Shown here one piece after another: positions 8,550 to 24,611 of a stretch of DNA of 26,445 nucleotides. Origin of the DNA: a virus (lineage: Duplodnaviria; Caudoviricetes). How positions within the stretch are numbered: position 1 is the stretch's first letter; each line of letters begins with the position of its first letter. The notes under the pieces are model-generated. The model did no database searches and was not told the origin of the DNA. It saw only the letters and a program-made list of their open reading frames with translations. Both the position numbers and the translations under genes were made by a program. The stretch is taken from positions 1-26,445 of IMG/VR virus record IMGVR_UViG_3300005758_000110, one strand, 5' to 3'.

Positions 8550-9355
8550 TTTTTTTAGGATTAACACCTAAGAGATATACACCATTAGGTGGAACTACAA
8601 CTGATGCTGATGCACAGGCTTTTATTACAGCGGCTGGAATTACAGATGCTACTCAAAAAAGCGCAATTAATCAACTTGTATTGGATTTAAAGAGTGCTAA
8701 CATTTGGACTAAAATGAAAGCTTTATATCCAATTGTTGGGGGTACTTCAACAACTCATAAATGGAATTTAAAAAATCCTTTGGATACAGATGCTGCTTTT
8801 AGATTAAATTTTTCGTTAGGTTGGACACATTCAAGTAATGGCATGACACCAAATGGGACGAGTGCTTTTGCAAATACTTTTTGTGGTACAAATGAGATGA
8901 ATATAAATAGTGCGCATATTTCATTTTATTCAAGAACTAACAATTCTGTATCAGGTCAAGAAATGGGTGCATTACAAAACCTTCCAAATAGTTATACAGA
9001 TTTATCATTAAATTATCCAGGATATGGAGCTTTTACACGAATAAATAATGGCGGAACACCTGTTGGAGTAGTAAATTCAGATTCAACTGGTTTTTATATA
9101 GCAACAAGAACAGCATCAAACATATTAAATCTATTTAAAAATAATAACAAAATAAGAGCAGGAACAGATTTATCAAATGCAACATCAACAAGACCAATAT
9201 ATATAGGAGGGTTAAATAATCAAGGAAGTGCTGGTTTTTATACAAATAGACAATGTGCATTTGCCTCAATAGGCGATGGCTTAACAGATACAGAAGCAGC
9301 AAACTTTTATACAGCGGTAAATACATATCAAACAACTTTAGGAAGAAACGTTTAA
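8546..9355 (+). CDS. Virion/tail-associated protein with lectin (ConA-like) fold candidate
   Basis: 'DADAQAFITAAGITDATQKSAINQLVLDLK...W.KMKA.YP.VGG' and C-terminal 'CAFASIGDGLTD.EA...YT.V..YQT.LGR', a family I recall from freshwater Bacteroidota phages. Confidence 0.55.
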   Translation: MIFLGLTPKRYTPLGGTTTDADAQAFITAAGITDATQKSAINQLVLDLKSANIWTKMKALYPIVGGTSTTHKWNLKNPLDTDAAFRLNFSLGWTHSSNGMTPNGTSAFANTFCGTNEMNINSAHISFYSRTNNSVSGQEMGALQNLPNSYTDLSLNYPGYGAFTRINNGGTPVGVVNSDSTGFYIATRTASNILNLFKNNNKIRAGTDLSNATSTRPIYIGGLNNQGSAGFYTNRQCAFASIGDGLTDTEAANFYTAVNTYQTTLGRNV

Positions 9356-9367
9356 AATAAAATAATT

Positions 9368-9586
9368 ATGGAAGGCAGAATAGTAACAGAGCAACAAGCA
9401 AATGAACTACAAGGAGTATTCATTGATGCTGATACATTTTTTAATTTCGTTCAAGACATTGACGGAAAATACTTTATGTTTACAAGTGAACAGGATGAGG
9501 CTGAAATAGCAAATACTCAATACGCTTATTTATTGGATATTCCATTAAGTCCTTATACACCACCACCACCAACACCAATACCATAA
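9368..9586 (+). CDS. Small acidic protein, possible fibre assembly chaperone
   Basis: 72 aa after the fibre-like gene; 'FNFVQDIDGKYF' and a Pro-rich tail. Confidence 0.4.
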   Translation: MEGRIVTEQQANELQGVFIDADTFFNFVQDIDGKYFMFTSEQDEAEIANTQYAYLLDIPLSPYTPPPPTPIP

Positions 9587-9592
9587 TAAATT

Positions 9593-9799
9593 ATGAAAAA
9601 TTTTTTAGAATATATTAAAAAGTACGGAGCGACTGCCGTATTAGTTGCATGGTTAATGCATACAAATTATCGAGTAGCTATTTTAGAAAGCAAATTATAT
9701 TCATGCTTAGAAAGAAATCAATTTATGCAGCAATATCAAAGACAAAATGCTTGTATATTACCTAAAAAACTAAGTTATGAAACTGAAAGTAATTCGTGA
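9593..9799 (+). CDS. Small membrane protein of lysis cassette (holin-like)
   Basis: One hydrophobic segment (YGATAVLVAWLM); overlaps the endolysin start. Confidence 0.4.
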   Translation: MKNFLEYIKKYGATAVLVAWLMHTNYRVAILESKLYSCLERNQFMQQYQRQNACILPKKLSYETESNS

Positions 9800-10202
9800 A
9801 ACAAAAACAGATATTAGTACAATTGGAAGGCTTTTCGTAAATGAAAAGTTTTTCTGTTATACACTTGAAGATAAAGATAGAGCATTGAAACAAACCGATA
9901 CTTTGATTTATATTCAGGCAAAAAAGATATTTGGAGTTACTGCAATCCCATCTGGAAGCTATGAGTTGATAGTTAATCAAAGCCCTAAATTCAAAAGGAT
10001 GTTACCTCGCATTCTTAATATAAAAGGATTTGATGGGGTTTTAATGCACAGAGGAAACACAGCGAATGATTCATTAGGCTGTATTATTTTGGGTTATCAA
10101 AAAGGCGATAACGCAATCTTTGATAGTACTAAGGCAGAAAATGATTTGGTAAACCTTTTGTTATTGCACAAAGACGAAAAGCATACTATTGAAATAGTAT
10201 AA
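9777..10202 (+). CDS. Putative endolysin, DUF5675 / L,D-peptidase-like
   Basis: 'STIGRL...FCYTLED', 'TAIP.G.Y' and His/Cys motif 'VLMHRGNTANDSLGCIILG'. Confidence 0.75.
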   Translation: MKLKVIRETKTDISTIGRLFVNEKFFCYTLEDKDRALKQTDTLIYIQAKKIFGVTAIPSGSYELIVNQSPKFKRMLPRILNIKGFDGVLMHRGNTANDSLGCIILGYQKGDNAIFDSTKAENDLVNLLLLHKDEKHTIEIV

Positions 10203-10231
10203 AAAAAGCCCGACTTACTCGAAGTCAGGCT
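10201..10231 (-). terminator. Minus-strand intrinsic terminator
   Basis: AGCCTGACTT-CGAGT-AAGTCGGGC+T7 on the minus strand. One pair is U-G on minus but A-C on plus, which fixes the orientation. Confidence 0.75.
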
Positions 10232-10272
10232 CAATCATGAAATTTAGTTACATATTGTGTATGAAAAGAACG
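10201..10272 (-). ncRNA. Putative ~70-nt small RNA antisense to the lysis operon
   Basis: Bounded by a minus-strand Bacteroidota promoter (10278-10306) and a minus-strand terminator (10201-10231); the 5' end is approximate. Confidence 0.6.
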
Positions 10273-10277
10273 TGGTG

Positions 10278-10306
10278 CAAATATAATAAATTTTTTTTAT
10301 GCCAAA
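10278..10306 (-). promoter_or_regulatory. Bacteroidota sigma-A-type promoter (minus strand)
   Basis: TTTG (10306-10303), 17-nt spacer, TATATTTG (10285-10278). Confidence 0.6.
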
Positions 10307-10775
10307 CTTTTTAAGTAAAATATTTTCAGGCGGAGCTGGTTCAGTAATTGATTCTGTTTCCAACGTTGTGGACAAATTTGTCCAAACCAAAGAAGAAAAA
10401 GATGCTGCTAATTTAGAACTGCAAAAGGTTTTAAATAGTCATTTAGAAGTAATGGAGCAAGAAGCAACTAAGCAATTAGAGGTTTACCAAAAAGAAATGG
10501 ATTCAGCTCGTAACAGAGAAATTCAAATTGCAACCGCAGAGAAAGCTCCATTGTTAAATAAGATAGTTACACCTGTTTTAGCTTTAATAGTTATTCTATT
10601 AACCTTTATATTGTTTTATGTATTAATGTTTAAGCAAGTAGGCAACGAAAAAGATATTATTATTTATGTGTTGGGAGTTTTAAGCGCAGTATGTACTCAA
10701 ATTGTAAGTTACTATTTTGGAAGTTCACAGGGTTCAGCTCAAAAACAAACACAAATTGACAAATTAATGAAGTAA
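10299..10775 (+). CDS. Putative holin
   Basis: Amphipathic N-terminus, 'SARNRE' motif, two TM segments and 'YYFGSS' ending; adjacent to the endolysin. Confidence 0.7.
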   Translation: MPNFLSKIFSGGAGSVIDSVSNVVDKFVQTKEEKDAANLELQKVLNSHLEVMEQEATKQLEVYQKEMDSARNREIQIATAEKAPLLNKIVTPVLALIVILLTFILFYVLMFKQVGNEKDIIIYVLGVLSAVCTQIVSYYFGSSQGSAQKQTQIDKLMK

Positions 10776-10802
10776 AATTTTCTATTTGATTTTCAAGTAG
10801 TT

Positions 10803-10836
10803 AGCAATTATTTAACAAAATAGTTGCTTTTTTTTT
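10803..10836 (+). terminator. Terminator at end of late/lysis operon
   Basis: AGCAATTATTT (10803-10813) / AAATAGTTGCT (10818-10828) followed by a long T run. Confidence 0.6.
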
Positions 10837-10865
10837 GGTTTATATTAAAAATTGCTTTAAATTTG
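10834..10865 (+). promoter_or_regulatory. Bacteroidota sigma-A-type early promoter
   Basis: TTTG (10834-10837)-N20-TAAATTTG (10858-10865), a consensus -33/-7 promoter. Confidence 0.8.
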
Positions 10866-10889
10866 CTTTATAATTAAAAACAAACAATC

Positions 10890-11231
10890 ATGAAAACAGA
10901 ACAATTACTTGGAGCTATTGAATACATTTTACATGAGTTCAATAACGTAAACGACAGTCACTCGGAAGTTAGATTTGACCGCATGAGGTTTATTATTATT
11001 GATAACGGTTTAACAACTACAATTAAATGCGAATATAAATATAGAGATGCATTAGTTTTAGTTGAGCCAAAAAAAGATAATATAGATGCTATTTGGAATC
11101 ATGAAGTTCAAATAACAACTTACCGATTTGATTTAAAAAACAATGATGAGTTTTTCAGTTTCTTAACTTATAACTTAAATAAAATGTTTGCTAACTTTTT
11201 AACACTTAATCCTTATGAAAAAGCTATTTAG
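10890..11231 (+). CDS. Hypothetical early protein
   Basis: 113-aa ORF, first gene after the early promoter, with an A-rich leader. Confidence 0.6.
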   Translation: MKTEQLLGAIEYILHEFNNVNDSHSEVRFDRMRFIIIDNGLTTTIKCEYKYRDALVLVEPKKDNIDAIWNHEVQITTYRFDLKNNDEFFSFLTYNLNKMFANFLTLNPYEKAI

Positions 11232-11343
11232 TTTAACAGGAGCTATTGACTGGTGGACAAGAAGAAACCATGATAGCGTAAGACAATCATTTAACATTGA
11301 ACACTATTTTAAAGTATTAAAAGCAAAAGGAATAATAAAATAA
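11215..11343 (+). CDS. Small hypothetical protein (42 aa), not in ORF track
   Basis: MKKLFSLTGAIDWWTRRNHDSVRQSFNIEHYFKVLKAKGIIK; overlaps the upstream gene, and its TAA is the TAAC core of the attC-like element. Confidence 0.55.
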   Translation: MKKLFSLTGAIDWWTRRNHDSVRQSFNIEHYFKVLKAKGIIK

Positions 11344-11395
11344 CGTGTCGCAGCTATGCGCTCGTTTTAATGGCGCATAGGTGCTGTTAGGCGTA
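11341..11395. repeat. attC-like imperfect hairpin
   Basis: TAAC-gtgtc-GCAGCTATGCGC (11350-11361)...GCGCATAGGTGC (11373-11384)-t-GTTAGGC; GC-rich in an AT-rich genome. Confidence 0.7.
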
Positions 11396-11425
11396 TGTGG
11401 CGGTTAATTAAACGAAAAATTAAAT

Positions 11426-12112
11426 ATGGAAAACGGAATAAGAATTTTAATAGCTTGTGAAGAAAGCGATGAAGTTAGGGGAAGATTTGAGCAAATGGGT
11501 TTTGATGCTTGGAGTTGTGATTTGCAAGAAAATAGAAACCCTAACGCAAATCATTATCAAGGAAATGTTTTTGACATTATAGATGACAATTGGGATGCAA
11601 TGATAGCATTTCCACCTTGCACACATTTAGCTGTGAGTGGAGCAGCTTGGTTTGAGCAAAAGCGAAAAGATGGCAGACAGCAACAAGGGATTGACTTTTT
11701 TTTAGCGATTGCAAGAGCCAAAATAAAACACATAGCAATAGAAAATCCAGTAGGAATAATGAGTAAAATTTATATGCCACCAACACAAGTAATACAACCA
11801 TATTATTTTGGCGATAAGGCACAAAAAACAACTTGCCTTTGGTTGAAAAACTTTCCACCATTATACCACAATGCAACACCTAATTTATTTGATGATGTAG
11901 TAACACATACTGACAAAGGCGAGTTTTTTGAATGGATTGATAGTAAGACTGGAAAGAAAAAAAGGCAACCTTTGTGGTTTAAAGAAGCAAGGAGTTTAAA
12001 AGGCGATGAACGAAGCAAGGTAAGGTCAAAAACATTTCCGGGAATAGCACAAGCTATGGCAAGTCAATGGGGTAATTATCTTATGGAAACGTATCGTAGC
12101 CATTACGCCTAA
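11426..12112 (+). CDS. DNA cytosine-C5 methyltransferase-like protein (phage type)
   Basis: 'ILIACEES...F...G.DAWSCD' SAM-binding start, catalytic 'FPPCTHL', 'IENPVG', 'K.TCLWL' and 'RSKTFPGIA.AMA.QWG'. Confidence 0.75.
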   Translation: MENGIRILIACEESDEVRGRFEQMGFDAWSCDLQENRNPNANHYQGNVFDIIDDNWDAMIAFPPCTHLAVSGAAWFEQKRKDGRQQQGIDFFLAIARAKIKHIAIENPVGIMSKIYMPPTQVIQPYYFGDKAQKTTCLWLKNFPPLYHNATPNLFDDVVTHTDKGEFFEWIDSKTGKKKRQPLWFKEARSLKGDERSKVRSKTFPGIAQAMASQWGNYLMETYRSHYA

Positions 12113-12162
12113 CTTACTTATTTGCGCTACTTTATAGCGACTTATATAAAAATAAATAAAAT

Positions 12163-12378
12163 ATGAAAATACCAAAACAAACAAAACAAACTATTGATGA
12201 GTTCTACTCATTTGGAGACCAGACTAAATTAAGAAGGTTTGGAATAAGCAAAGGGAAAAAGTTTAGCTTAGTAACAATAAGTAAAGCATTTAAAACAGGT
12301 GAATGCAATGATGATCTTCTCGACTTAATTAATGAATTTTATAAACTAAAAACTAAAAAGTATGGAAATGTATACTGA
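12163..12378 (+). CDS. Small basic protein, possible HTH DNA-binding
   Basis: 71 aa; 'SLVTISKAFKTG' resembles a recognition helix (weak). Confidence 0.4.
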   Translation: MKIPKQTKQTIDEFYSFGDQTKLRRFGISKGKKFSLVTISKAFKTGECNDDLLDLINEFYKLKTKKYGNVY

Positions 12379-12574
12379 TAACTTAGGTAAAATGAAAACG
12401 GATATGTTAGTAAGATTAAGACATACAGAATCTCAATTAATGGAAATAGCTGAAAAAGTTGGAGTAAATAACAGGCTTGAGATATTTGACAATGATTTAA
12501 TTGATAGATATGTAGCCTTAAAAAACCAACTAAGTATTTTAACATATAATTTTTTAAATAAAATTTGCTTATAA
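12362..12574 (+). CDS. Hypothetical protein
   Basis: 70-aa helical ORF coupled to the upstream gene. Confidence 0.5.
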   Translation: MEMYTDNLGKMKTDMLVRLRHTESQLMEIAEKVGVNNRLEIFDNDLIDRYVALKNQLSILTYNFLNKICL

Positions 12575-12594
12575 ATTAATTATAATTATCTTTG
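12564..12594 (+). promoter_or_regulatory. Bacteroidota sigma-A-type promoter
   Basis: TTTG (12564-12567)-N19-TATCTTTG (12587-12594); the ATG is only 5 nt downstream. Confidence 0.8.
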
Positions 12595-12599
12595 CAATT

Positions 12600-12848
12600 A
12601 TGAAAAAAACACAATCAATGGCGATACTCGATGCTTTACTTGCTGGCATTGTAGTTAATGGCTCAAACGCCTATGCTATTACTAAAAAAGAATGCAAGTG
12701 CGGAACTCTTAACCTTCATAAACTTATAGCTATTATTAGAGAGTTAGGTTATACAGTAAATGAGGAATGGAAAACAAATCCAAAAACAAAAACAGGATAT
12801 AAAGAATTTTCAATAACTAACAAAAAACAAAAGAAAAATGGAAACTAA
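12600..12848 (+). CDS. Winged-HTH DNA-binding protein
   Basis: 'TQ..AILDALLAG.......A........L...I..IRELGY.V..EW' pattern of small phage HTH proteins. Confidence 0.6.
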   Translation: MKKTQSMAILDALLAGIVVNGSNAYAITKKECKCGTLNLHKLIAIIRELGYTVNEEWKTNPKTKTGYKEFSITNKKQKKNGN

Positions 12849-13095
12849 ATTAAACAGCGGAGCAATTTTTAAGAATGCTAAAAAGACAAATGAAAAGCAA
12901 CCTGATTATCAGGGTACGGTAAATGTAAATGGAAAAGAAATGCAGATTAGTATGTGGTTAAAAGAAAGCCAAAAAGGAACTAAATATTTTAGTGTTGCGT
13001 TTCAAGAGCCATTTAAAAAAGATACTGAAAATAAAACGTATTCAAATGAAACAAAGTACACCCCAAAAATAGAAGACGATGGATTACCATTTTAG
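12838..13095 (+). CDS. ssDNA-binding-like protein (DUF736-like)
   Basis: 'NSGAIFKN..K..EKQPDYQG...V.GKE..IS.W' plus an acidic 'DDGLPF' C-terminal tail typical of SSBs. Confidence 0.65.
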   Translation: METKLNSGAIFKNAKKTNEKQPDYQGTVNVNGKEMQISMWLKESQKGTKYFSVAFQEPFKKDTENKTYSNETKYTPKIEDDGLPF

Positions 13096-13144
13096 TCTAT
13101 TCACTACAAAAACGTATAAATAAACAGAATTAAAACTATCTATC

Positions 13145-13384
13145 ATGAAAATTACAATTGAAAAAAAAGAAAGCGTTGAGATTGAAGTTCAATTACCAAC
13201 TTACGTAAAAAACAATAATCATTATTTTAAAATAGAAGAAAACAAAACTACCTCTATTTATAATAGTGAAAAAAACTATGAAATTGAAATCAATGAATAT
13301 ATGATGAGATTTCCATTTGAATACGATGAAATAACAGAAAGTGAATTCAATGAAGTATATAACCAAGTAAAATCAAAATTATGA
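13145..13384 (+). CDS. Hypothetical protein
   Basis: 79-aa acidic ORF; overlaps the next ATG by ATGA. Confidence 0.55.
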   Translation: MKITIEKKESVEIEVQLPTYVKNNNHYFKIEENKTTSIYNSEKNYEIEINEYMMRFPFEYDEITESEFNEVYNQVKSKL

Positions 13385-13923
13385 AAACTACAGAAAAGAA
13401 CGAAAAACAAAGTTTATTTAAAAGCTTAGCAGCATTCCAACAAGAAGTGCCAGTTATTCACAAAGAAACAAAAGGTTACGGATATTCTTACGCAGACCTT
13501 CCAACTATCTTTGATAAAATCAATCCATTGTTAGCTAAGCACAATTTAGGATTTACTCAACCAATAATGGGCAATTGTGTTAAAACAATTATATTCCAAA
13601 CTGAAACAGGGGAAACAATTGAATCATTAACTGAAATTCCACAAGGAGTTCAATTAAAAGGTATGAATGATTTTCAGGTTTTAGGTAGTGCAATTACTTA
13701 CATTCGCAGATATGCTTTAAGTTCAATTTTAGGATTAGTTACCGACAAAGATACTGATGCGGCTGGTGAACAAACAAAGCCAAGTAAACCTATTTTAAAA
13801 GCCGATACAGAACACTTTGGCAAAGCAGTTGAGTATTTGATGAAAGGTGGGTCTATCGATGCTATAAAGGCAAAATATGAGGTTAGTCAGGAAGTAGAAA
13901 CCAAACTAATAAAGTCAATCTAA
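13381..13923 (+). CDS. erf: ERF-family single-strand annealing protein
   Basis: 'YSYADL..I...I.PLL..H.L' and 'GSAITYIRRYALSSILGL..D.DTDA' ERF signature. Confidence 0.9.
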   Translation: MKTTEKNEKQSLFKSLAAFQQEVPVIHKETKGYGYSYADLPTIFDKINPLLAKHNLGFTQPIMGNCVKTIIFQTETGETIESLTEIPQGVQLKGMNDFQVLGSAITYIRRYALSSILGLVTDKDTDAAGEQTKPSKPILKADTEHFGKAVEYLMKGGSIDAIKAKYEVSQEVETKLIKSI

Positions 13924-15609: not shown

Positions 15610-15868
15610 ACAGGCAAAACTTGAATTTGAAAGCCATTTATTAATTGGTTTATTCAAGGCTACAATTGAGCAAAGCACTCACTTAACAGGTAAATACAAA
15701 CAAAAGATGCTGGCTGACTTTAATCTATGGCAAAGAATCGGTTTTAAACTTTTAGAACAACTTGAAAAAAGGAATATAACGGAAGGTGAATACTTGGATA
15801 AAATAGGAGATATTTACCACACTATGAACTCAAATATGCGTGAAGAATTTTACAAAGGATTGGAATGA
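15587..15868 (+). CDS. Hypothetical protein
   Basis: 93-aa helical ORF; ATGA overlap with the MTase gene. Confidence 0.55.
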   Translation: MEKTLTPEQAKLEFESHLLIGLFKATIEQSTHLTGKYKQKMLADFNLWQRIGFKLLEQLEKRNITEGEYLDKIGDIYHTMNSNMREEFYKGLE

Positions 15869-16485
15869 AAGTAACAGATAAAATAGAAATAACAAATGAA
15901 GATAACATGGAGCTAATGGCTCGCTATCCTGATAACTATTTTGATTTGGCAATAGTTGACCCACCTTATGGGATTGATATAAATTTAAGTGGAACACATT
16001 TTAAAGAAAAATACGAAATTAAAAGCTGGGATAAAGAAACACCAACAGACAAATATTTCAATGAATTAAAAAGAGTTTCAAAAAATCAAATCATCTGGGG
16101 TGGAAACTATTTTTTAGATAGGCTTGGAAATTGTAAATGTTTTGTTATTTGGGATAAAAAAATAGCTGAAGATATGAGTTTTGCAATGTGTGAAATGGCT
16201 TGGACTTCTTTTAAAAATGGAGCAAAGATATACAAAACAACCGCAACACAACTTGAAAGAATACACCCTACCCAAAAACCTGTTGCACTATACAAATGGC
16301 TCTTAAACAAATACGCAAAGCAAGGCGATAAAATACTTGACACGCATTTAGGTTCTGGAAGTATAGCAATAGCTTGTCACGATTACGGATTTGATTTAAC
16401 AGCGTGTGAACTTGACAAAGAGTATTTTGATAAAGCCATTCAAAGAATAAAAAACCATGTTAGCCAACAGAAATTGTTTTTATAA
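15865..16485 (+). CDS. DNA N6-adenine/N4-cytosine methyltransferase (beta class)
   Basis: DPPY catalytic motif near the N-terminus, 'HPTQKP' and 'ILDTHLGSGS' SAM-binding motif. Confidence 0.92.
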   Translation: MKVTDKIEITNEDNMELMARYPDNYFDLAIVDPPYGIDINLSGTHFKEKYEIKSWDKETPTDKYFNELKRVSKNQIIWGGNYFLDRLGNCKCFVIWDKKIAEDMSFAMCEMAWTSFKNGAKIYKTTATQLERIHPTQKPVALYKWLLNKYAKQGDKILDTHLGSGSIAIACHDYGFDLTACELDKEYFDKAIQRIKNHVSQQKLFL

Positions 16486-16512: not shown

Positions 16513-16594
16513 AGATGAGTTGCAGCATCTATAAAAAAATTAATTATCCCTTTGGTGAGTAGAGCCTGCAACCTCGAAAGCCGAAGGGTTTTTT
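16513..16594 (+). ncRNA. Structured leader/small RNA with kissing loops and terminator
   Basis: Hairpin 1 AGATG/CATCT has loop AGTTGCAG. Hairpin 2 CCCTTTGGT/GCCGAAGGG has an internal GAGTA/GAAA loop and apical loop CCTGCAAC, followed by T6. The two loops are complementary over 7 nt. Confidence 0.7.
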
Positions 16595-16631
16595 ATTATC
16601 AGTTATTGGTTATCTTAAAACCATTAAAATT

Positions 16632-19295: not shown

Positions 19296-19357
19296 AAATA
19301 ATATGAAAAAAACTGATTATCAATTTATTTTGTTTTCAATCTTATTACTTTTTGATT

Positions 19358-19370: not shown

Positions 19371-19874
19371 GTGATTGAGGAACTCGTAAACAATAAAATA
19401 TACAAACAAATAACTCGTAATATTTGCCACAATCACGAATTACTTGAGGATTTACATTCGGAGGCTATTATTGTGATAATTGAAAAACAAATTGACTTTT
19501 CAACTATTAGAAACCTTCGCCATTACTTTTCAACCGTTTGCTGGTTAACTTGGCACTCAAATAAATTTAGAAAACGTTATTTTGTTGAACACGTTACATT
19601 TGTGGATAATTTAAATGAAATAGTTGAGCAAAATGATAATATTGATTATTCAGCTTTAATCAGCTTTTTAAATGACTCCCCACAAACAGAAAATGAATTT
19701 TACGAACAAAATCTTTTAAAGCTTTATATTCAGCATGGGGATGCTAAAAAGTTAAGCGATAAAACAAAGATACCTTATAGAACGGTAGCAAACGATATAA
19801 AAAAAATCAAAGAAAAACTCAAACGACAACACAATGAAAAAAATTCTCATCAAAGCGAACATGGGGAACCTTAA
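19371..19874 (+). CDS. Phage sigma-factor-like protein (ECF-type, regions 2 and 4)
   Basis: 'EDLHSEAII' region-2-like segment and a C-terminal HTH 'AKKLSDKTKIPYRTVANDIKKIKEKLK'; at the early/late boundary. Confidence 0.65.
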   Translation: MIEELVNNKIYKQITRNICHNHELLEDLHSEAIIVIIEKQIDFSTIRNLRHYFSTVCWLTWHSNKFRKRYFVEHVTFVDNLNEIVEQNDNIDYSALISFLNDSPQTENEFYEQNLLKLYIQHGDAKKLSDKTKIPYRTVANDIKKIKEKLKRQHNEKNSHQSEHGEP

Positions 19875-20874
19875 CGGTTTATCATTTCACCGATTAATAG
19901 TTCCTTTTGCAAAAATATCCGATATGGTAAACTTCCAATGTGATGTTTTCCCTGACTTAGATGTTGCAACCGATGAGCAGCTTAAACAATATTCAGCAGT
20001 AGTTTATCAAAGAGAAATCGATACAGGTGGCAAATCATTAGAAATAATTAAAAAGTTTCACTCATTAGGAATAAAAGTAATATTCGATATTGACGACATC
20101 TGGACTTTACCTAAAAGCCATTATTTAAGTAGACTTTACGACATACACAATATACCAGACCAAACAATTGAAATTCTTAAAAATGTTGACTTAGTAATAA
20201 CCACTACCAAACATCTGGCATCAAAAATTAAAAGATACAATAAAAACGTTGAGGTTATTCCAAACTGTTTAGACCATGAAGACGAGCAATGGAAAGCAAA
20301 CAAAAGCAAAAGCGACAAAATAAGGTTTGGTTATATTGCAGGGATATTCCACAAAGGCGATATTTCAATTTTGGAACTACCTATTCGTAAAGTATTGAGG
20401 CACGATATAAACGCTCAATTTGTTTTAGGCGGTTACAATGATAATGCAGATTATCACTACTACGAAAAAGTAATGAGTGGCGGTAAGGTAACCGATAAAT
20501 ATCAAAGAGTTTACAGTTTGCCAGTACATGATTATGGTAAGGCTTATAACGAAACAGATGTAAGTTTAATTCCTCTTCAATCAAATTCATTTACTGAATG
20601 CAAAAGTGAAATTAAATTACTCGAAGCTGGTTTACATGGCAACCCTGCAATAGTAAGTGATGTGCTACCTTATAACACTTTTCCCAAAGAAACAGCAATA
20701 TTCTTAAAAAACAATGATATAAATGGCTGGTTTAAGGCAATAAGAGAATTAACCAGAAATGAATCAATGAGAAAGGAATATGCAGAAAGTTTACAAAAAT
20801 ATATTGAAAAACATTATAATATAAACAAATGGACGGAAGTAAGGAAACAAATCCTCGAATCGGTATTGGCGTAA
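19834..20874 (+). CDS. Glycosyltransferase, GT-B fold (GT4-like)
   Basis: 'G..FHRL..P', 'DIDDIW', 'VIPNCLD', 'DVSLIPL....F..CKSEIKLLEAG', 'IVSDV.PY'. Confidence 0.85.
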   Translation: MKKILIKANMGNLNGLSFHRLIVPFAKISDMVNFQCDVFPDLDVATDEQLKQYSAVVYQREIDTGGKSLEIIKKFHSLGIKVIFDIDDIWTLPKSHYLSRLYDIHNIPDQTIEILKNVDLVITTTKHLASKIKRYNKNVEVIPNCLDHEDEQWKANKSKSDKIRFGYIAGIFHKGDISILELPIRKVLRHDINAQFVLGGYNDNADYHYYEKVMSGGKVTDKYQRVYSLPVHDYGKAYNETDVSLIPLQSNSFTECKSEIKLLEAGLHGNPAIVSDVLPYNTFPKETAIFLKNNDINGWFKAIRELTRNESMRKEYAESLQKYIEKHYNINKWTEVRKQILESVLA

Positions 20875-21488
20875 CAACCACTCCAAACAGATATGAGTAC
20901 ATTGATAGATGGCTTGAATACTTTGAAAAGTTTAAACCTAAAAACTATCACTTACACATACATACTGACGAACATTACAAAGGTGTTGCCTATTCAAAAA
21001 ATCAAAATTTAAAAACATTACAGGATTGTGATTATATTTTCCTATTTGACGACGACTGCTATCCTGTTAAACCTGACTGGGCAAAGTTTTTTATTGAATC
21101 AAATTACAATCATTTACTTTACTTACAACCATACCATAGAATAAAAAGCAAAATAAACAATTTAGAGAGCTATCACGATTGTGGTGGGGTGTTAATATAC
21201 TTAACAAAAGAAGTATTAAATAAAGTCGGTTATTTTAATCCTGAGTATGGGCAGTATGGATTTGAACATGCAGGTTACTCAAATCGAATATATAAAGCTG
21301 GTTTAACATCATCCCCTTATCAACAATTAACAGGAACTGATAAATATTTTTTTTCAAAAGATTACATGAATATAGAACACAAATCGAGTATTCCAATTTA
21401 TAAAAAGAATAAATTAATTGAAGAAAATCGAAAAGTTTTTTTAAAGGAATTACAAAGCGAAAAAATTTATTATAACTTTGCAGAGTGA
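20829..21488 (+). CDS. Glycosyltransferase, GT-A fold (GT2-like)
   Basis: 'IGIGVTT', 'GVAYSKN..L', 'IFLFDDDCYP' DxD motif, 'VG.F...YG.YGFEH'. Confidence 0.8.
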   Translation: MDGSKETNPRIGIGVTTTPNRYEYIDRWLEYFEKFKPKNYHLHIHTDEHYKGVAYSKNQNLKTLQDCDYIFLFDDDCYPVKPDWAKFFIESNYNHLLYLQPYHRIKSKINNLESYHDCGGVLIYLTKEVLNKVGYFNPEYGQYGFEHAGYSNRIYKAGLTSSPYQQLTGTDKYFFSKDYMNIEHKSSIPIYKKNKLIEENRKVFLKELQSEKIYYNFAE

Positions 21489-22174
21489 ACGAACACATCC
21501 TTTTTAAATTAGCAACTCGAAGTCGACCACATAAAGCAAAATCAGCTATTGATAATATTATTGCTAATTGCAATTCAATGAATTACACAATATTAGTAAG
21601 CATTGATGAAGATGACTTAACCATGAAAAACTTTGAACATAAAGACGATAATGTTTTTATAATCAAAGGAACTTCCAAAAATAAGATTGATGCTATAAAT
21701 AGGGACATGGATATTTTTGAAGGTTGGAAAATACTTATTAATACTTCGGATGACATGGTATTTAACATAAAAGGTTTTGATGAAATAATAAGACAGGATT
21801 TTAACGGATATTATGACCAAGTATTACATTATACAGATGGATATCAAAAAGGAAACTTAATGACAATGAGTATAATGGGTTATGATTACTATAAACGTTT
21901 CAATTATATTTACTATCCTGATTATATTTCTCTTTGGTGTGACATGGAGGCAACCGAAGTAGCTCATTTGCTAAACAAATATAAATACATGGGCGATGCA
22001 AAGCAATTGTTTACACACGCTCATCCTGCATGGGGATTGACTGAATACGATGAACAATACAGAAAAACTGAAAGTCAAGTAGTTAATAATCATGATAAGA
22101 CTTTATTCAATTATCGAAAATCAGAAAATTATTTTTTGCCTGACCATTTAATAATAAACAAACCTAAATATTAA
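21485..22174 (+). CDS. Glycosyltransferase, GT-A fold
   Basis: 'ATRSRP', 'SIDEDD', 'KIDAINRD', 'LINTSDDM', 'Y.SLWCD.E', 'H.HP'; GTG start overlaps the upstream stop. Confidence 0.7.
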   Translation: MNEHILFKLATRSRPHKAKSAIDNIIANCNSMNYTILVSIDEDDLTMKNFEHKDDNVFIIKGTSKNKIDAINRDMDIFEGWKILINTSDDMVFNIKGFDEIIRQDFNGYYDQVLHYTDGYQKGNLMTMSIMGYDYYKRFNYIYYPDYISLWCDMEATEVAHLLNKYKYMGDAKQLFTHAHPAWGLTEYDEQYRKTESQVVNNHDKTLFNYRKSENYFLPDHLIINKPKY

Positions 22175-22773
22175 TGTATAGTCAAAATAACGAAGAAGAA
22201 GTAATATCAAACTATTTTGGAAACAAAATAGGTAACTTATTAGATATAGGGGCAAACGATGGAATTACTTTATCAAATAGCAGAAAATTAATAGAATTAG
22301 GTTGGAGTGGTGAATTAATTGAACCTGCAGAAATGCCTTATAACAAACTTGTAAATTTATATAAAGACAATAAAAAGATTAAATTACATAATATAGCTAT
22401 ATCGGATTTAAGAGGTGAGCTAACTTTTTATTCAAGTGGAGAACATGTAGGTAATGGAGATAGTGATTTACTTTCTACTCTCTCAATAGTTGATAAACAA
22501 AAATGGGAAAATACAACAGTATATAAAGAAATTAAAGTCCAATCATTAAAATGGATTGATTTTTATAATTGGCAAATTTATGACTTTATAAATATAGATG
22601 CTGAAGGTTATGATTTAAGCATTTTAAAACAAATGGATTTAAAAGAATTGGGATGTAAATGTTTATGTATTGAACACAATGGACATCAATATAATGATAT
22701 AATAAGAGAATTGAAAAAATATAATATGAAGACAATTTTAGTAAATAACGAAAACATAATAGCAGCAATATAA
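22174..22773 (+). CDS. FkbM-family methyltransferase
   Basis: 'MYSQNNEE', 'LDIGANDG...SNS..L...GW.G..IEP', 'DFINIDAEGYD..IL'. Confidence 0.9.
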   Translation: MYSQNNEEEVISNYFGNKIGNLLDIGANDGITLSNSRKLIELGWSGELIEPAEMPYNKLVNLYKDNKKIKLHNIAISDLRGELTFYSSGEHVGNGDSDLLSTLSIVDKQKWENTTVYKEIKVQSLKWIDFYNWQIYDFINIDAEGYDLSILKQMDLKELGCKCLCIEHNGHQYNDIIRELKKYNMKTILVNNENIIAAI

Positions 22774-23354
22774 TGGGAATTACAGATTTTAGTTTACTTA
22801 TTTTAAATAAGTATATCAACGAACAAAAAACAGTATTAGAGTTAGGAGCTCAAAATCTTTATGTGGAATCATATCCAAGCGCACCGTATGCAGATAAATA
22901 TTATACTGCAAAAGGATTAGAATATACTTGTATTGATTTAAATAAAGAAAACAATGCTATGGAATTAGATTTATCTATAAAACAAAATTTAGATAAATTT
23001 GATATAGTTACTGACTTTGGAACTTCCGAACATATTGGTATTGATGGCAAACATGACCCAAAAGCATTTTATAATTGTTGGTTAAATAAACATAATGCTT
23101 GTAAAATAGGAGGTTTAATTATTAGTGAAAACCCAAAAACAGGCAATTGGATAGGTCATGGTTTTAATTATGTGACTGAAAACTTTTATAGACAATTAGC
23201 TCAATCAAATGGTTATGAGATACTTGAAATAGGCGAACATCCTGCAATGAATAACATAACAGATGGTTGGAATATTTATTGTGTACTTCGCAAAACTCAA
23301 GAAAAATTTATGACATTAACTAATTTTAAAAAATTAGAATTTTATACATCATGA
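22773..23354 (+). CDS. Class I SAM-dependent methyltransferase
   Basis: 'VLELGAQ', 'YTCIDLN', 'FDIVTDFGTSEHI', 'GG.II'. Confidence 0.8.
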   Translation: MGITDFSLLILNKYINEQKTVLELGAQNLYVESYPSAPYADKYYTAKGLEYTCIDLNKENNAMELDLSIKQNLDKFDIVTDFGTSEHIGIDGKHDPKAFYNCWLNKHNACKIGGLIISENPKTGNWIGHGFNYVTENFYRQLAQSNGYEILEIGEHPAMNNITDGWNIYCVLRKTQEKFMTLTNFKKLEFYTS

Positions 23355-23932
23355 TACTTTCAATCCTTATACCAACTGTACCTCAAAGGGCTAACCTTTT
23401 TTTAGAGCTTCATAGAGAAATTAACTCTCAATTAGAAATCACAAACGCATTTGGAATAGTTGAGGTTATTTCAGATGATGCACCAGTAGGTACAAAAACT
23501 ACAGGTCAAAAGAGAAATGACTTAATTAATGCAGCGCAAGGCGAATATGTTTGGTTTATTGATGATGATGATATGATAATGCCAAATGCACTTAAAAACG
23601 TTTTAACAGCATTAGAACAAAAACCTGATGCATTAGCTATTAATGGAATAATCACTACTAATGGTGTAGATAAAAAAGAATGGTATATAAGTAAGGATTT
23701 AGAATATATTGCAGATTGGTCTAAAGGATATGAAGTTTATTTAAGACCAACAAATCATATTACACCAACTAAAAGAGAAATAGCAAAACTAATAAAGTTT
23801 GAAGATAAAAGTAACTTTGAAGATTATGCTTATTGCATGGAACTCAAAAGATTAGGATTAATTAAAACAGAAGTTAAAATAGACGAACCTGTTTACCATT
23901 ATAGATACATCAACTATGATAAACTTTACTGA
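23351..23932 (+). CDS. Glycosyltransferase family 2
   Basis: 'LSILIPT..R', 'G.KRN.L...A.GEYV.FIDDDD', 'FED' and 'YHYRY'. Confidence 0.88.
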   Translation: MILSILIPTVPQRANLFLELHREINSQLEITNAFGIVEVISDDAPVGTKTTGQKRNDLINAAQGEYVWFIDDDDMIMPNALKNVLTALEQKPDALAINGIITTNGVDKKEWYISKDLEYIADWSKGYEVYLRPTNHITPTKREIAKLIKFEDKSNFEDYAYCMELKRLGLIKTEVKIDEPVYHYRYINYDKLY

Positions 23933-24611
23933 ATGCGCAATAATATGTTTTGCAAATAGCAGCTATTCAAAGGGGGCGCAAAGATTAAGAGAAAGTGTAA
24001 CTGAACATAATTTTAAAGGTGAACTATTTATTTTCACAGATGAAACGCAAGTTCCATGTCCGCTTCACTCACAAAATCCTTACGCTTTTAAAACTTTTAT
24101 ATTTGATAGAGTAAAAAATTTAGGCTTTAAAAAAATACTATGGGTTGATTCATCTGTTTATTTAATTAAAAACATAGACCACATATTTGAATTAATAGAT
24201 AAAGATGGATATTTAATGCAAGAAGCTGGTCATCATGTAGGAACTTGGGCAAATGATAAATGTTTAAATTATTTCAATATAAATAGAGATGAGGCATTAA
24301 ATATGTTAATGTATGGAAATGCAGGTTTATTAGGATTAAATTTTGAAAATGAAATAGCTATTAAATTTTTTAACAAATGGCACCAGGCATCAAAAGACGG
24401 AATATTTATCGGTAAATGGAATAATAACGATAAAACAGAAAGCGAAGATGAAAGATGCAAAGGTCATAGGCATGATATGACTTGCGGAAGCATAATAGCA
24501 AATCAACTTAAAATGAAATATCATTCAGGGCAAAGTATATTAATGTATGGCGCACCAGAAGATGAATCATTAAACGAAACAATAGTATTTAAAGCTCAAG
24601 GAATTAATTAA
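23916..24611 (+). CDS. Putative nucleotide-sugar transferase (GT-A-like)
   Basis: 'PYAFK', 'ILWVDSS', 'NAG', 'HRHDMT..S' resemble GT-A enzymes with a C-terminal HRHDQ-type motif. Confidence 0.6.
   Translation: MINFTECAIICFANSSYSKGAQRLRESVTEHNFKGELFIFTDETQVPCPLHSQNPYAFKTFIFDRVKNLGFKKILWVDSSVYLIKNIDHIFELIDKDGYLMQEAGHHVGTWANDKCLNYFNINRDEALNMLMYGNAGLLGLNFENEIAIKFFNKWHQASKDGIFIGKWNNNDKTESEDERCKGHRHDMTCGSIIANQLKMKYHSGQSILMYGAPEDESLNETIVFKAQGIN

Follow-up and report, generated by a model that had tools for sequence, protein, structure and literature searches.

A putative one-cassette array at an attI-like docking site among the early genes of a Caudoviricetes phage

Positions 11341-12139 of the window (the whole 26,445-nucleotide stretch of viral DNA that was analysed) very probably form a one-cassette array at an attI-like docking site, at which relatives carry other cassettes or none, and where cassettes are likely moved at the tetranucleotide TAAC by a tyrosine recombinase of the host. 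The initial annotation had read the locus as an integron-like gene cassette, and this reading holds: alternative cargo, an empty site in a sister lineage and arms that co-vary across the gene were all found, so that the cassette behaviour is established by comparison of related sequences.

Locus layout and alleles at the junction

The IMG/VR record IMGVR_UViG_3300005758_000110 is a linear Caudoviricetes sequence, from a freshwater phage, of 26.4 kb and 77% completeness that carries portal, capsid, Erf, YqaJ, NinG and primase-helicase genes, and DNA related to this phage is present in freshwater and aquaculture metagenomes. The methylase cassette sits among the first early genes of the window, and all of its features lie on the + strand. 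To its left, a 42-aa open reading frame (11215..11343; flank conserved in loci L026, L027, L030 and L160) ends in the TAA that begins the left TAAC core (11341..11344), so that gain or loss at TAAC leaves this frame intact and, as had been claimed, excision would preserve its stop codon. An attC-like hairpin of the short subfamily (11341..11389) extends from the same core and consists of TAAC, an unequal spacer, a stem with a G/G mismatch, an 11-nt loop and GTTA. The gene body comprises a left arm (11386..11401), whose GTTA core is a candidate second exchange point, a leader with the start codon (11400..11432), a predicted 228-aa orphan cytosine-C5 DNA methyltransferase (11426..12112), a trailer encoding part of a C-terminal tail that is absent from plain homologs (12085..12100), and a right arm that is complementary to the left arm and holds the stop codon and the right TAAC (12099..12113). 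Leader and trailer are common to cassettes of unrelated MT-A70 methylases. An attI-like docking site (12110..12139) is made up of TAAC, ~10 nt, GCGC and a 5-bp inverted repeat at 12125-12139, and a downstream 71-aa early gene (12163..12378) anchors the locus in relatives. The initial annotation had correctly placed the TAAC copies at 11341 and 12110 (769 bp from the first to the second), the stop codon inside GCCTAAC, and the perfect 10-bp inverted pair with its 4-bp extension at 11386-11401 and 12099-12113. The sequence past the second TAAC, however, is no neutral flank; the conserved docking site at 12110-12139 had been overlooked.

The cargo is probably transcribed by read-through from a Bacteroidota-type -7 promoter box at 10858..10865; boxes of this type, assigned with what we take to be the Bacteroidota promoter consensus, lie upstream of several operons in the window. 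Sigma-70 promoter and terminator scans of the window gave results at or below chance, and a longer promoter pattern had 0 matches. Elsewhere, the window holds a second methylase gene of the N6/N4 type that is not in cassette form (15865-16485), a GC-rich intergenic stretch with a T run after a promoter-like box, possibly a leader or terminator and unrelated to the cassette hairpin (16540-16605), and a block of glycosyltransferase-like and methyltransferase-like genes ahead of the small terminase gene (19834-24611), of which the first gene, when scanned, proved to be a glycosyltransferase.

When related loci are compared, the unit that is gained or lost is the hairpin together with its downstream gene, with boundaries exactly at TAAC. 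Alternative cargo at this TAAC, which had been predicted, was found in several relatives: L030 has a different single cassette at the window's left junction and L028/L160 an array of several cassettes, each terminated by the same docking site, and contigs of run X3 have 190 other letters between the same boundaries, while in runs X2, X9 and X13 other hairpins begin at the same TAAC. Alleles diverge directly after the left core, the probable crossover point for cassette gain and loss. The predicted empty site is exact in a sister lineage: of 14 locus rows there that share one left junction, one (L162) is empty, and inserts of nine different lengths occur among the others. L162 and L164 agree in 192/200 nt on the upstream side and in 46/47 nt on the downstream side. 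By contrast, the window's own junction offers a single unconfirmed joint, in a contig of X2 that skips exactly 769 bases with four shared letters (29 nt on the short side, the letters between being unknown). This skip is absent from a second contig alignment, and no exact empty allele of the window's own junction occurs among the 27 viral loci with the docking site. One joint in X2 that ‘goes back’ may stem from a circle or just from the hairpin that comes next in some other array.

The whole platform is missing from L026, L027 and runs X1, X5 and X8, in which 11339 is joined to 12163; as this joint is not at TAAC, other processes also act at the locus. In a tree of the downstream gene, both platform and platform-free states occur in all three deep lineages (the platform loci being pattern-selected), and three of the seven rows scored as ‘none’ (L169, L177 and L184) carry the docking site one gene further upstream; for these reasons, whether the platform was gained or lost cannot be read from the tree.

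The hairpin family and the arms of the gene body

On the + strand, 11341-11395 has a folding energy of -13.3 kcal/mol (z -3.7), which none of 200 shuffles equalled, against -9.8 kcal/mol for the - strand; the fold agrees with the imperfect hairpin with a G/G mismatch and unequal spacer described previously. It is the only hairpin of attC-like type within the window, and a genome-wide repeat finder did not have the element among its top rows. Judged by the pattern searches with which the viral and genome loci were picked, the hairpin at 11341-11389 is one of a large family, with members in viral contigs and in chromosomes of Bacteroidota. The short pattern retrieved 23 viral loci with 16 different first open reading frames behind it (5 duplicates, 2 without a called frame), and a 27-mer from longer hairpins at least 120 loci in genomes, out of an estimated ~290 genome stretches with a match; among the matches listed for this second search, 73 of 80 titles name taxa that we take to belong to the phylum Bacteroidota. 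Hairpins on these chromosomes are ~126 nt long and occur in arrays of up to 18 in one locus. One such array (L114:1115-9272) has 18 hairpins and a recombinase of 580 aa that is much extended at its N terminus, and several of its short cassettes are duplicated. Hairpins were called by an ad hoc arm-pairing script that skips some of them, and 15 of the 80 listed genome loci gave none.

The TAACG strand forms the more stable fold in 41/47 phage and 177/224 chromosomal hairpins, and at one arm position a mismatch is fixed (a match in 2 of 125 cassettes), which gives a G.T pair on this strand. The site had been called non-canonical, and indeed its spacer is 5/9, with no extrahelical base in the stem, as against 5/5 in the Vibrio sites of L270. 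The inverted gene polarity claimed for the window likewise recurs in the viral cassettes: of 34, 28 have the gene in the direction seen in the window, 0 in the opposite one and 6 are uncalled, whereas 94 of 113 chromosomal cassettes are canonical (opposite to the window), 6 are as in the window and 13 uncalled, that is, 28/28 called viral cassettes reversed versus 94/100 called chromosomal ones canonical. Four of the six chromosomal exceptions are on one contig, L046, where an array with phage-type gene polarity (8996-13912) in a Flavobacterium bin is probably a prophage or phage contig. Rfam had no match for the window region or for 17 loci, one tmRNA aside. Identity with Flavo-1 (RF01705) was ruled out by the lack of an Rfam match and by the different sequence in the source alignment, as given in the parts consulted of PMC2864571 and PMC9723704. 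A tmRNA gene lies just beyond the cassette array of one viral contig (L012:4255-4640).

The 10-bp inverted pair on its own is modest evidence, being reached by 12 of 2000 shuffles of the same flanks, and one of the other 43 genes in the window has an 11-bp AT-rich flank match; family comparison was therefore needed. For each cassette, the five variable bases that follow GTTA were compared with the five that precede the next TAAC, the latter read as reverse complement; all 5/5 positions agreed in 20/33 phage and 90/113 chromosomal cassettes. As a control, the flank upstream of the same hairpin gave such matches in 0/33 and 6/111, and 2000 shuffles reached at most 6 (phage) and 12 (chromosomal); this family-wide comparison excludes a chance origin of the arms. 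The failure of 13/33 phage cassettes is due in part to the hairpins skipped by the detector. In L191, which has the same methylase cassette, both arms are altered in step, a compensatory change that, with the arm test, bears out the covariation of the hairpin's arm with the far end of the adjacent gene. The cores had also been matched to the integron consensus GTTRRRY/RYYYAAC; the sequence does fit, but partly by luck, since positions 5-7 vary freely across 125 cassettes. In L001 (860-885), a hairpin between two cassette bodies has been cleanly deleted and the arms fused, as slippage over the stem might produce; the two genes are thereby locked in position.

Two phage pairs (L169/L187 and L006/L021) have gene bodies that are 100% identical but stand in changed contexts, and in both the gene has kept its upstream hairpin, as expected of crossover at TAAC. 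Somewhat older pairs have not kept it: the methylase body, 93-94% identical in the window, L189 and L191, has three different hairpins, and the hairpins of L164/L276 (98.9% identical bodies) and L273/L275 (96%) differ likewise. On these sequence comparisons, the link between a hairpin and its gene is short-lived. Because the same body occurs with different hairpins that share only a 3' end of 5-9 nt ending at GTTA, we infer a second crossover at GTTA, for example by excision between two hairpins on the other strand. Allele boundaries at TAAC and hairpin swaps at GTTA suggest that the second core is used as well; in integrons, according to the portion of PMC5027507 consulted, the other strand is disfavoured for crossover.

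Docking site, recombinases and origin of the cargo

Arrays of the family terminate in a TAAC with no hairpin after it. A profile built from 21 bacterial array ends ranks 12110 first of the 518 YAAC sites in the window (10.7 versus 4.6 for the next), and the same docking site is present in 27 viral loci. By position and profile, 12110-12139 appears attI-like, with chromosomal counterparts placing this entry site at the recombinase end of the array. A tyrosine recombinase was recognised by motif in 15 genome loci (picked by hairpin pattern), and the docking site lies between array and recombinase in 11/11 traceable chromosomal loci, at a distance of no more than 210 bp in 10 of them; cassette genes and recombinase run in one direction in 8 of these loci and diverge in 3. 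All seven array-linked recombinases tested fall below the TIGR02249 cut-off and match the integron-integrase model in two pieces, and 12/12 that were aligned are without the IntI-specific insertion present in Vibrio IntI.

A match to PF00589 is absent from the 77%-complete record of the window, as is any tyrosine recombinase from five related records (three at least 90% complete), including the complete close relative G001. The initial annotation had noted that the window has no integrase and suggested an external recombinase, with which these absences are consistent. Among larger phage records, one of five has a recombinase near hairpins; in this 127-kb record (G007), a 276-aa array-type recombinase (L269:1132-1962) lies a few hundred bases from two hairpins. 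The docking site itself moves. In a related phage the same 21-nt site, at an array end, precedes a different gene, a homolog of that from window position 19301 onward (L025:1343-1363); it also precedes other genes in L165, L169, L174 and L179, and a metagenome scan found it in one locus, before another gene.

The cargo protein matches PHROG 757 (E 5.9e-59) and had no Pfam, NCBIfam or PDB sequence match. In 13 sequences of its family FPPC is invariant and EN(P) nearly so, which we take to be the catalytic Pro-Cys and Glu-Asn motifs of C5 methylases. A structural model (pLDDT 72) has DNMT3, M.HaeIII and M.HhaI as best Foldseek matches (E 3e-5 to 8e-4, TM 0.3-0.55), and motifs and predicted fold together point to a cytosine-C5 DNA methyltransferase, whose role would presumably be against host restriction. 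Most viral relatives are plain genes: among the best 80 of 302, 76 had enough flank, and of these 3 are cassettes and 73 plain. Four plain homologs are 90-93% identical to the cassette gene, over ~11438-12079 only. The leader (11400-11432) recurs in eight viral loci, three with this gene and five with an unrelated MT-A70 methylase that shares the trailer too. These data are most simply read as the replacement, perhaps via the Erf/YqaJ pair, of the cargo of an existing shell by a plain phage gene; in the methylase gene tree the cassette forms share an open fork with the four plain genes instead of forming one clade, so that the order of events does not follow from it and the replacement stays a hint. 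A short direct repeat at the start codon and near the gene end (11424-11435 and 12083-12093) could mark the entry of the gene into the shell.

Proposed mechanism and relation to known systems

In the mechanism we propose, a host recombinase, a relative of IntI without the IntI-specific insertion, would act in trans during infection and join the docking site, as double-stranded DNA, to a hairpin folded from its TAACG strand, which is the coding strand in phages and the non-coding one in hosts; the excised cassette would presumably be circular. New cassettes would land beside the docking site and be read through from the upstream early promoter, which could account for the reversed polarity of the phage genes. 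A second, less frequent exchange at the GTTA core probably swaps hairpins between gene bodies, and the cargo is likely to shield phage DNA from host restriction.

Four other explanations were weighed. That the locus is an ordinary integron cassette, an orphan attC recombined by classical IntI, would explain the cores GTTAGGC and GCCTAAC, the canonical polarity of host arrays (94/100 called) and the fact that a family member was called attC by HattCI (PMC9892861, in the part consulted). We nonetheless consider it very unlikely, given spacers of 5 and 9 nt where Vibrio attC has 5 and 5, recombinases that lack the insertion (12/12) or fall under the TIGR02249 cut-off (7/7), and the case of P12002L_attC1, which has the same 11-nt loop and for which the same part of PMC9892861 gives no verified IntI1 recombination. 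Also quite unlikely is a process without any site-specific enzyme, in which hairpins are repeated linkers and the Erf/YqaJ (Red-like) pair swaps modules by short homology. The phage does encode Erf and YqaJ and no tyrosine recombinase, and the platform-free alleles and the gene fusions into leader and trailer resemble microhomology events; yet gain and loss boundaries have only the 4-nt TAAC in common and hairpin swaps 5-9 nt ending in GTTA, arm complementarity across the gene would be useless in linear homologous exchange, and the chromosomal docking site adjoins a recombinase gene.

Intergenic RNase III hairpins are found in T7-like phages, and the better-folding strand is the mRNA strand in phages, as it would be if the hairpin were mainly an RNA signal between early genes (an RNase III site, terminator or stabiliser). 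In chromosomes, however, the better-folding strand is non-coding, so that strand asymmetry follows the hairpin and not the gene; Rfam, Flavo-1 included, had no match and no terminator was found, and arms, empty sites and docking site would be left unexplained. We regard such a main function as highly improbable, and the hairpin may have a secondary RNA role. The many near-identical copies before unrelated genes, and their exchange independently of gene bodies, could also be expected of a MITE or REP-like repeat that inserts alone near genes, but the unit added in the allele series is hairpin plus gene, ending at the docking site, and pairing between the arms spans the gene and not the hairpin, which makes this explanation scarcely credible.

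Site-specific movement of cassettes by a host recombinase is thus the preferred reading, and the sequences suggest that it belongs to a likely integron-like, barely described gene-shuffling system of Bacteroidota. A bolder proposal, conceivable but somewhat short of an even bet, is that small lytic Bacteroidota phages carry only the 30-bp docking site, borrow a host recombinase from an unrecognised sister lineage of integrons, and make cassettes by dropping ordinary phage genes into shells of leader, trailer and arms that already exist and by swapping hairpins at the second core, with this locus being such a creation caught in the act. If true, lytic phages would use a host enzyme to rotate anti-restriction genes. 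How cassettes first arise is a long-standing open question; here, the 90-93% identity of the cassette to its plain parent genes, and a shell in common with an unrelated gene, make one such route directly testable.

Like classical integrons, and sedentary chromosomal integrons such as Vibrio arrays in particular, the system has promoterless single-gene cassettes with complementary ends, conserved AAC/GTT cores, a strand-biased hairpin, chromosomal arrays and, beside the gene of a tyrosine recombinase, an entry site that does not form a hairpin (for attI and integron definitions, see the parts consulted of PMC8946536 and PMC5027507). Integrons recombine folded single-stranded DNA with replicative resolution; of this, the present sequences show the strand bias in folding. 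A classical integron is recognised by a linked intI product with the IntI-specific C-terminal insertion, intI_Cterm (PMC4889954), which the array recombinases lack. Inner attC geometry, in the consulted part of PMC5027507, comprises a central spacer that is nearly symmetric and, at the L box, extrahelical bases; here the spacer is 5/9 instead of 5/5. Genes point away from attI and are read from Pc in integrons, and point toward the entry site in the phage form, which also has no linked recombinase. With these three defining features absent, the system works like an integron and is not one. It further differs in its longer outer arms with a fixed mismatch, in a recombinase that is co-directional with the cassette genes in 8/11 loci, and in the swapping of hairpins between gene bodies. 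Nor is it a CALIN, which has two or more attC sites without an integrase, there being one hairpin in the window.

The portion of PMC8618304 consulted lists Bacteroidota merely among phyla with integrons. Qi et al. 2023 (PMC9892861) list the Polaribacter phage P12002L among phage CALINs, and in the sections consulted (section 3.4, Table S3) P12002L_attC1 is the single site, out of six phage sites, without verified IntI1 recombination. This site is a hairpin of the window's family, with the same 11-nt loop and architecture, upstream of a methylase gene, and P12002L holds at least six further family hairpins, on the gene strand or nearby. The two copies of P12002L attC2 (L157:29228-29240 and 37254-37266) each lie at the downstream end of a cassette run, which is the docking position. 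Where consulted, that study treats its sites as ordinary attC of divergent direction and names no separate family, docking site or recombinase; a search of mostly open-access literature found no description of the hairpin family beyond it. The suggestion of an undescribed system thus stands in so far as the family has not been described as such, and falls short in that one member is in print as a phage ‘attC’.

The cargo belongs to the orphan phage C5 DNA methyltransferases (PHROG 757), most of which are plain genes, with 3/76 testable homologs in cassette form. The site resembles attG sites (bioRxiv 10.1101/2022.09.11.507474, in the part consulted) in that cassettes lie at double-stranded sites away from an integrase gene. 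The attG consensus given there is only GWT, however, whereas conservation at the site in the window extends over ~20-30 nt; many cassettes reuse this motif, and it matches the site that adjoins the recombinase in host arrays.
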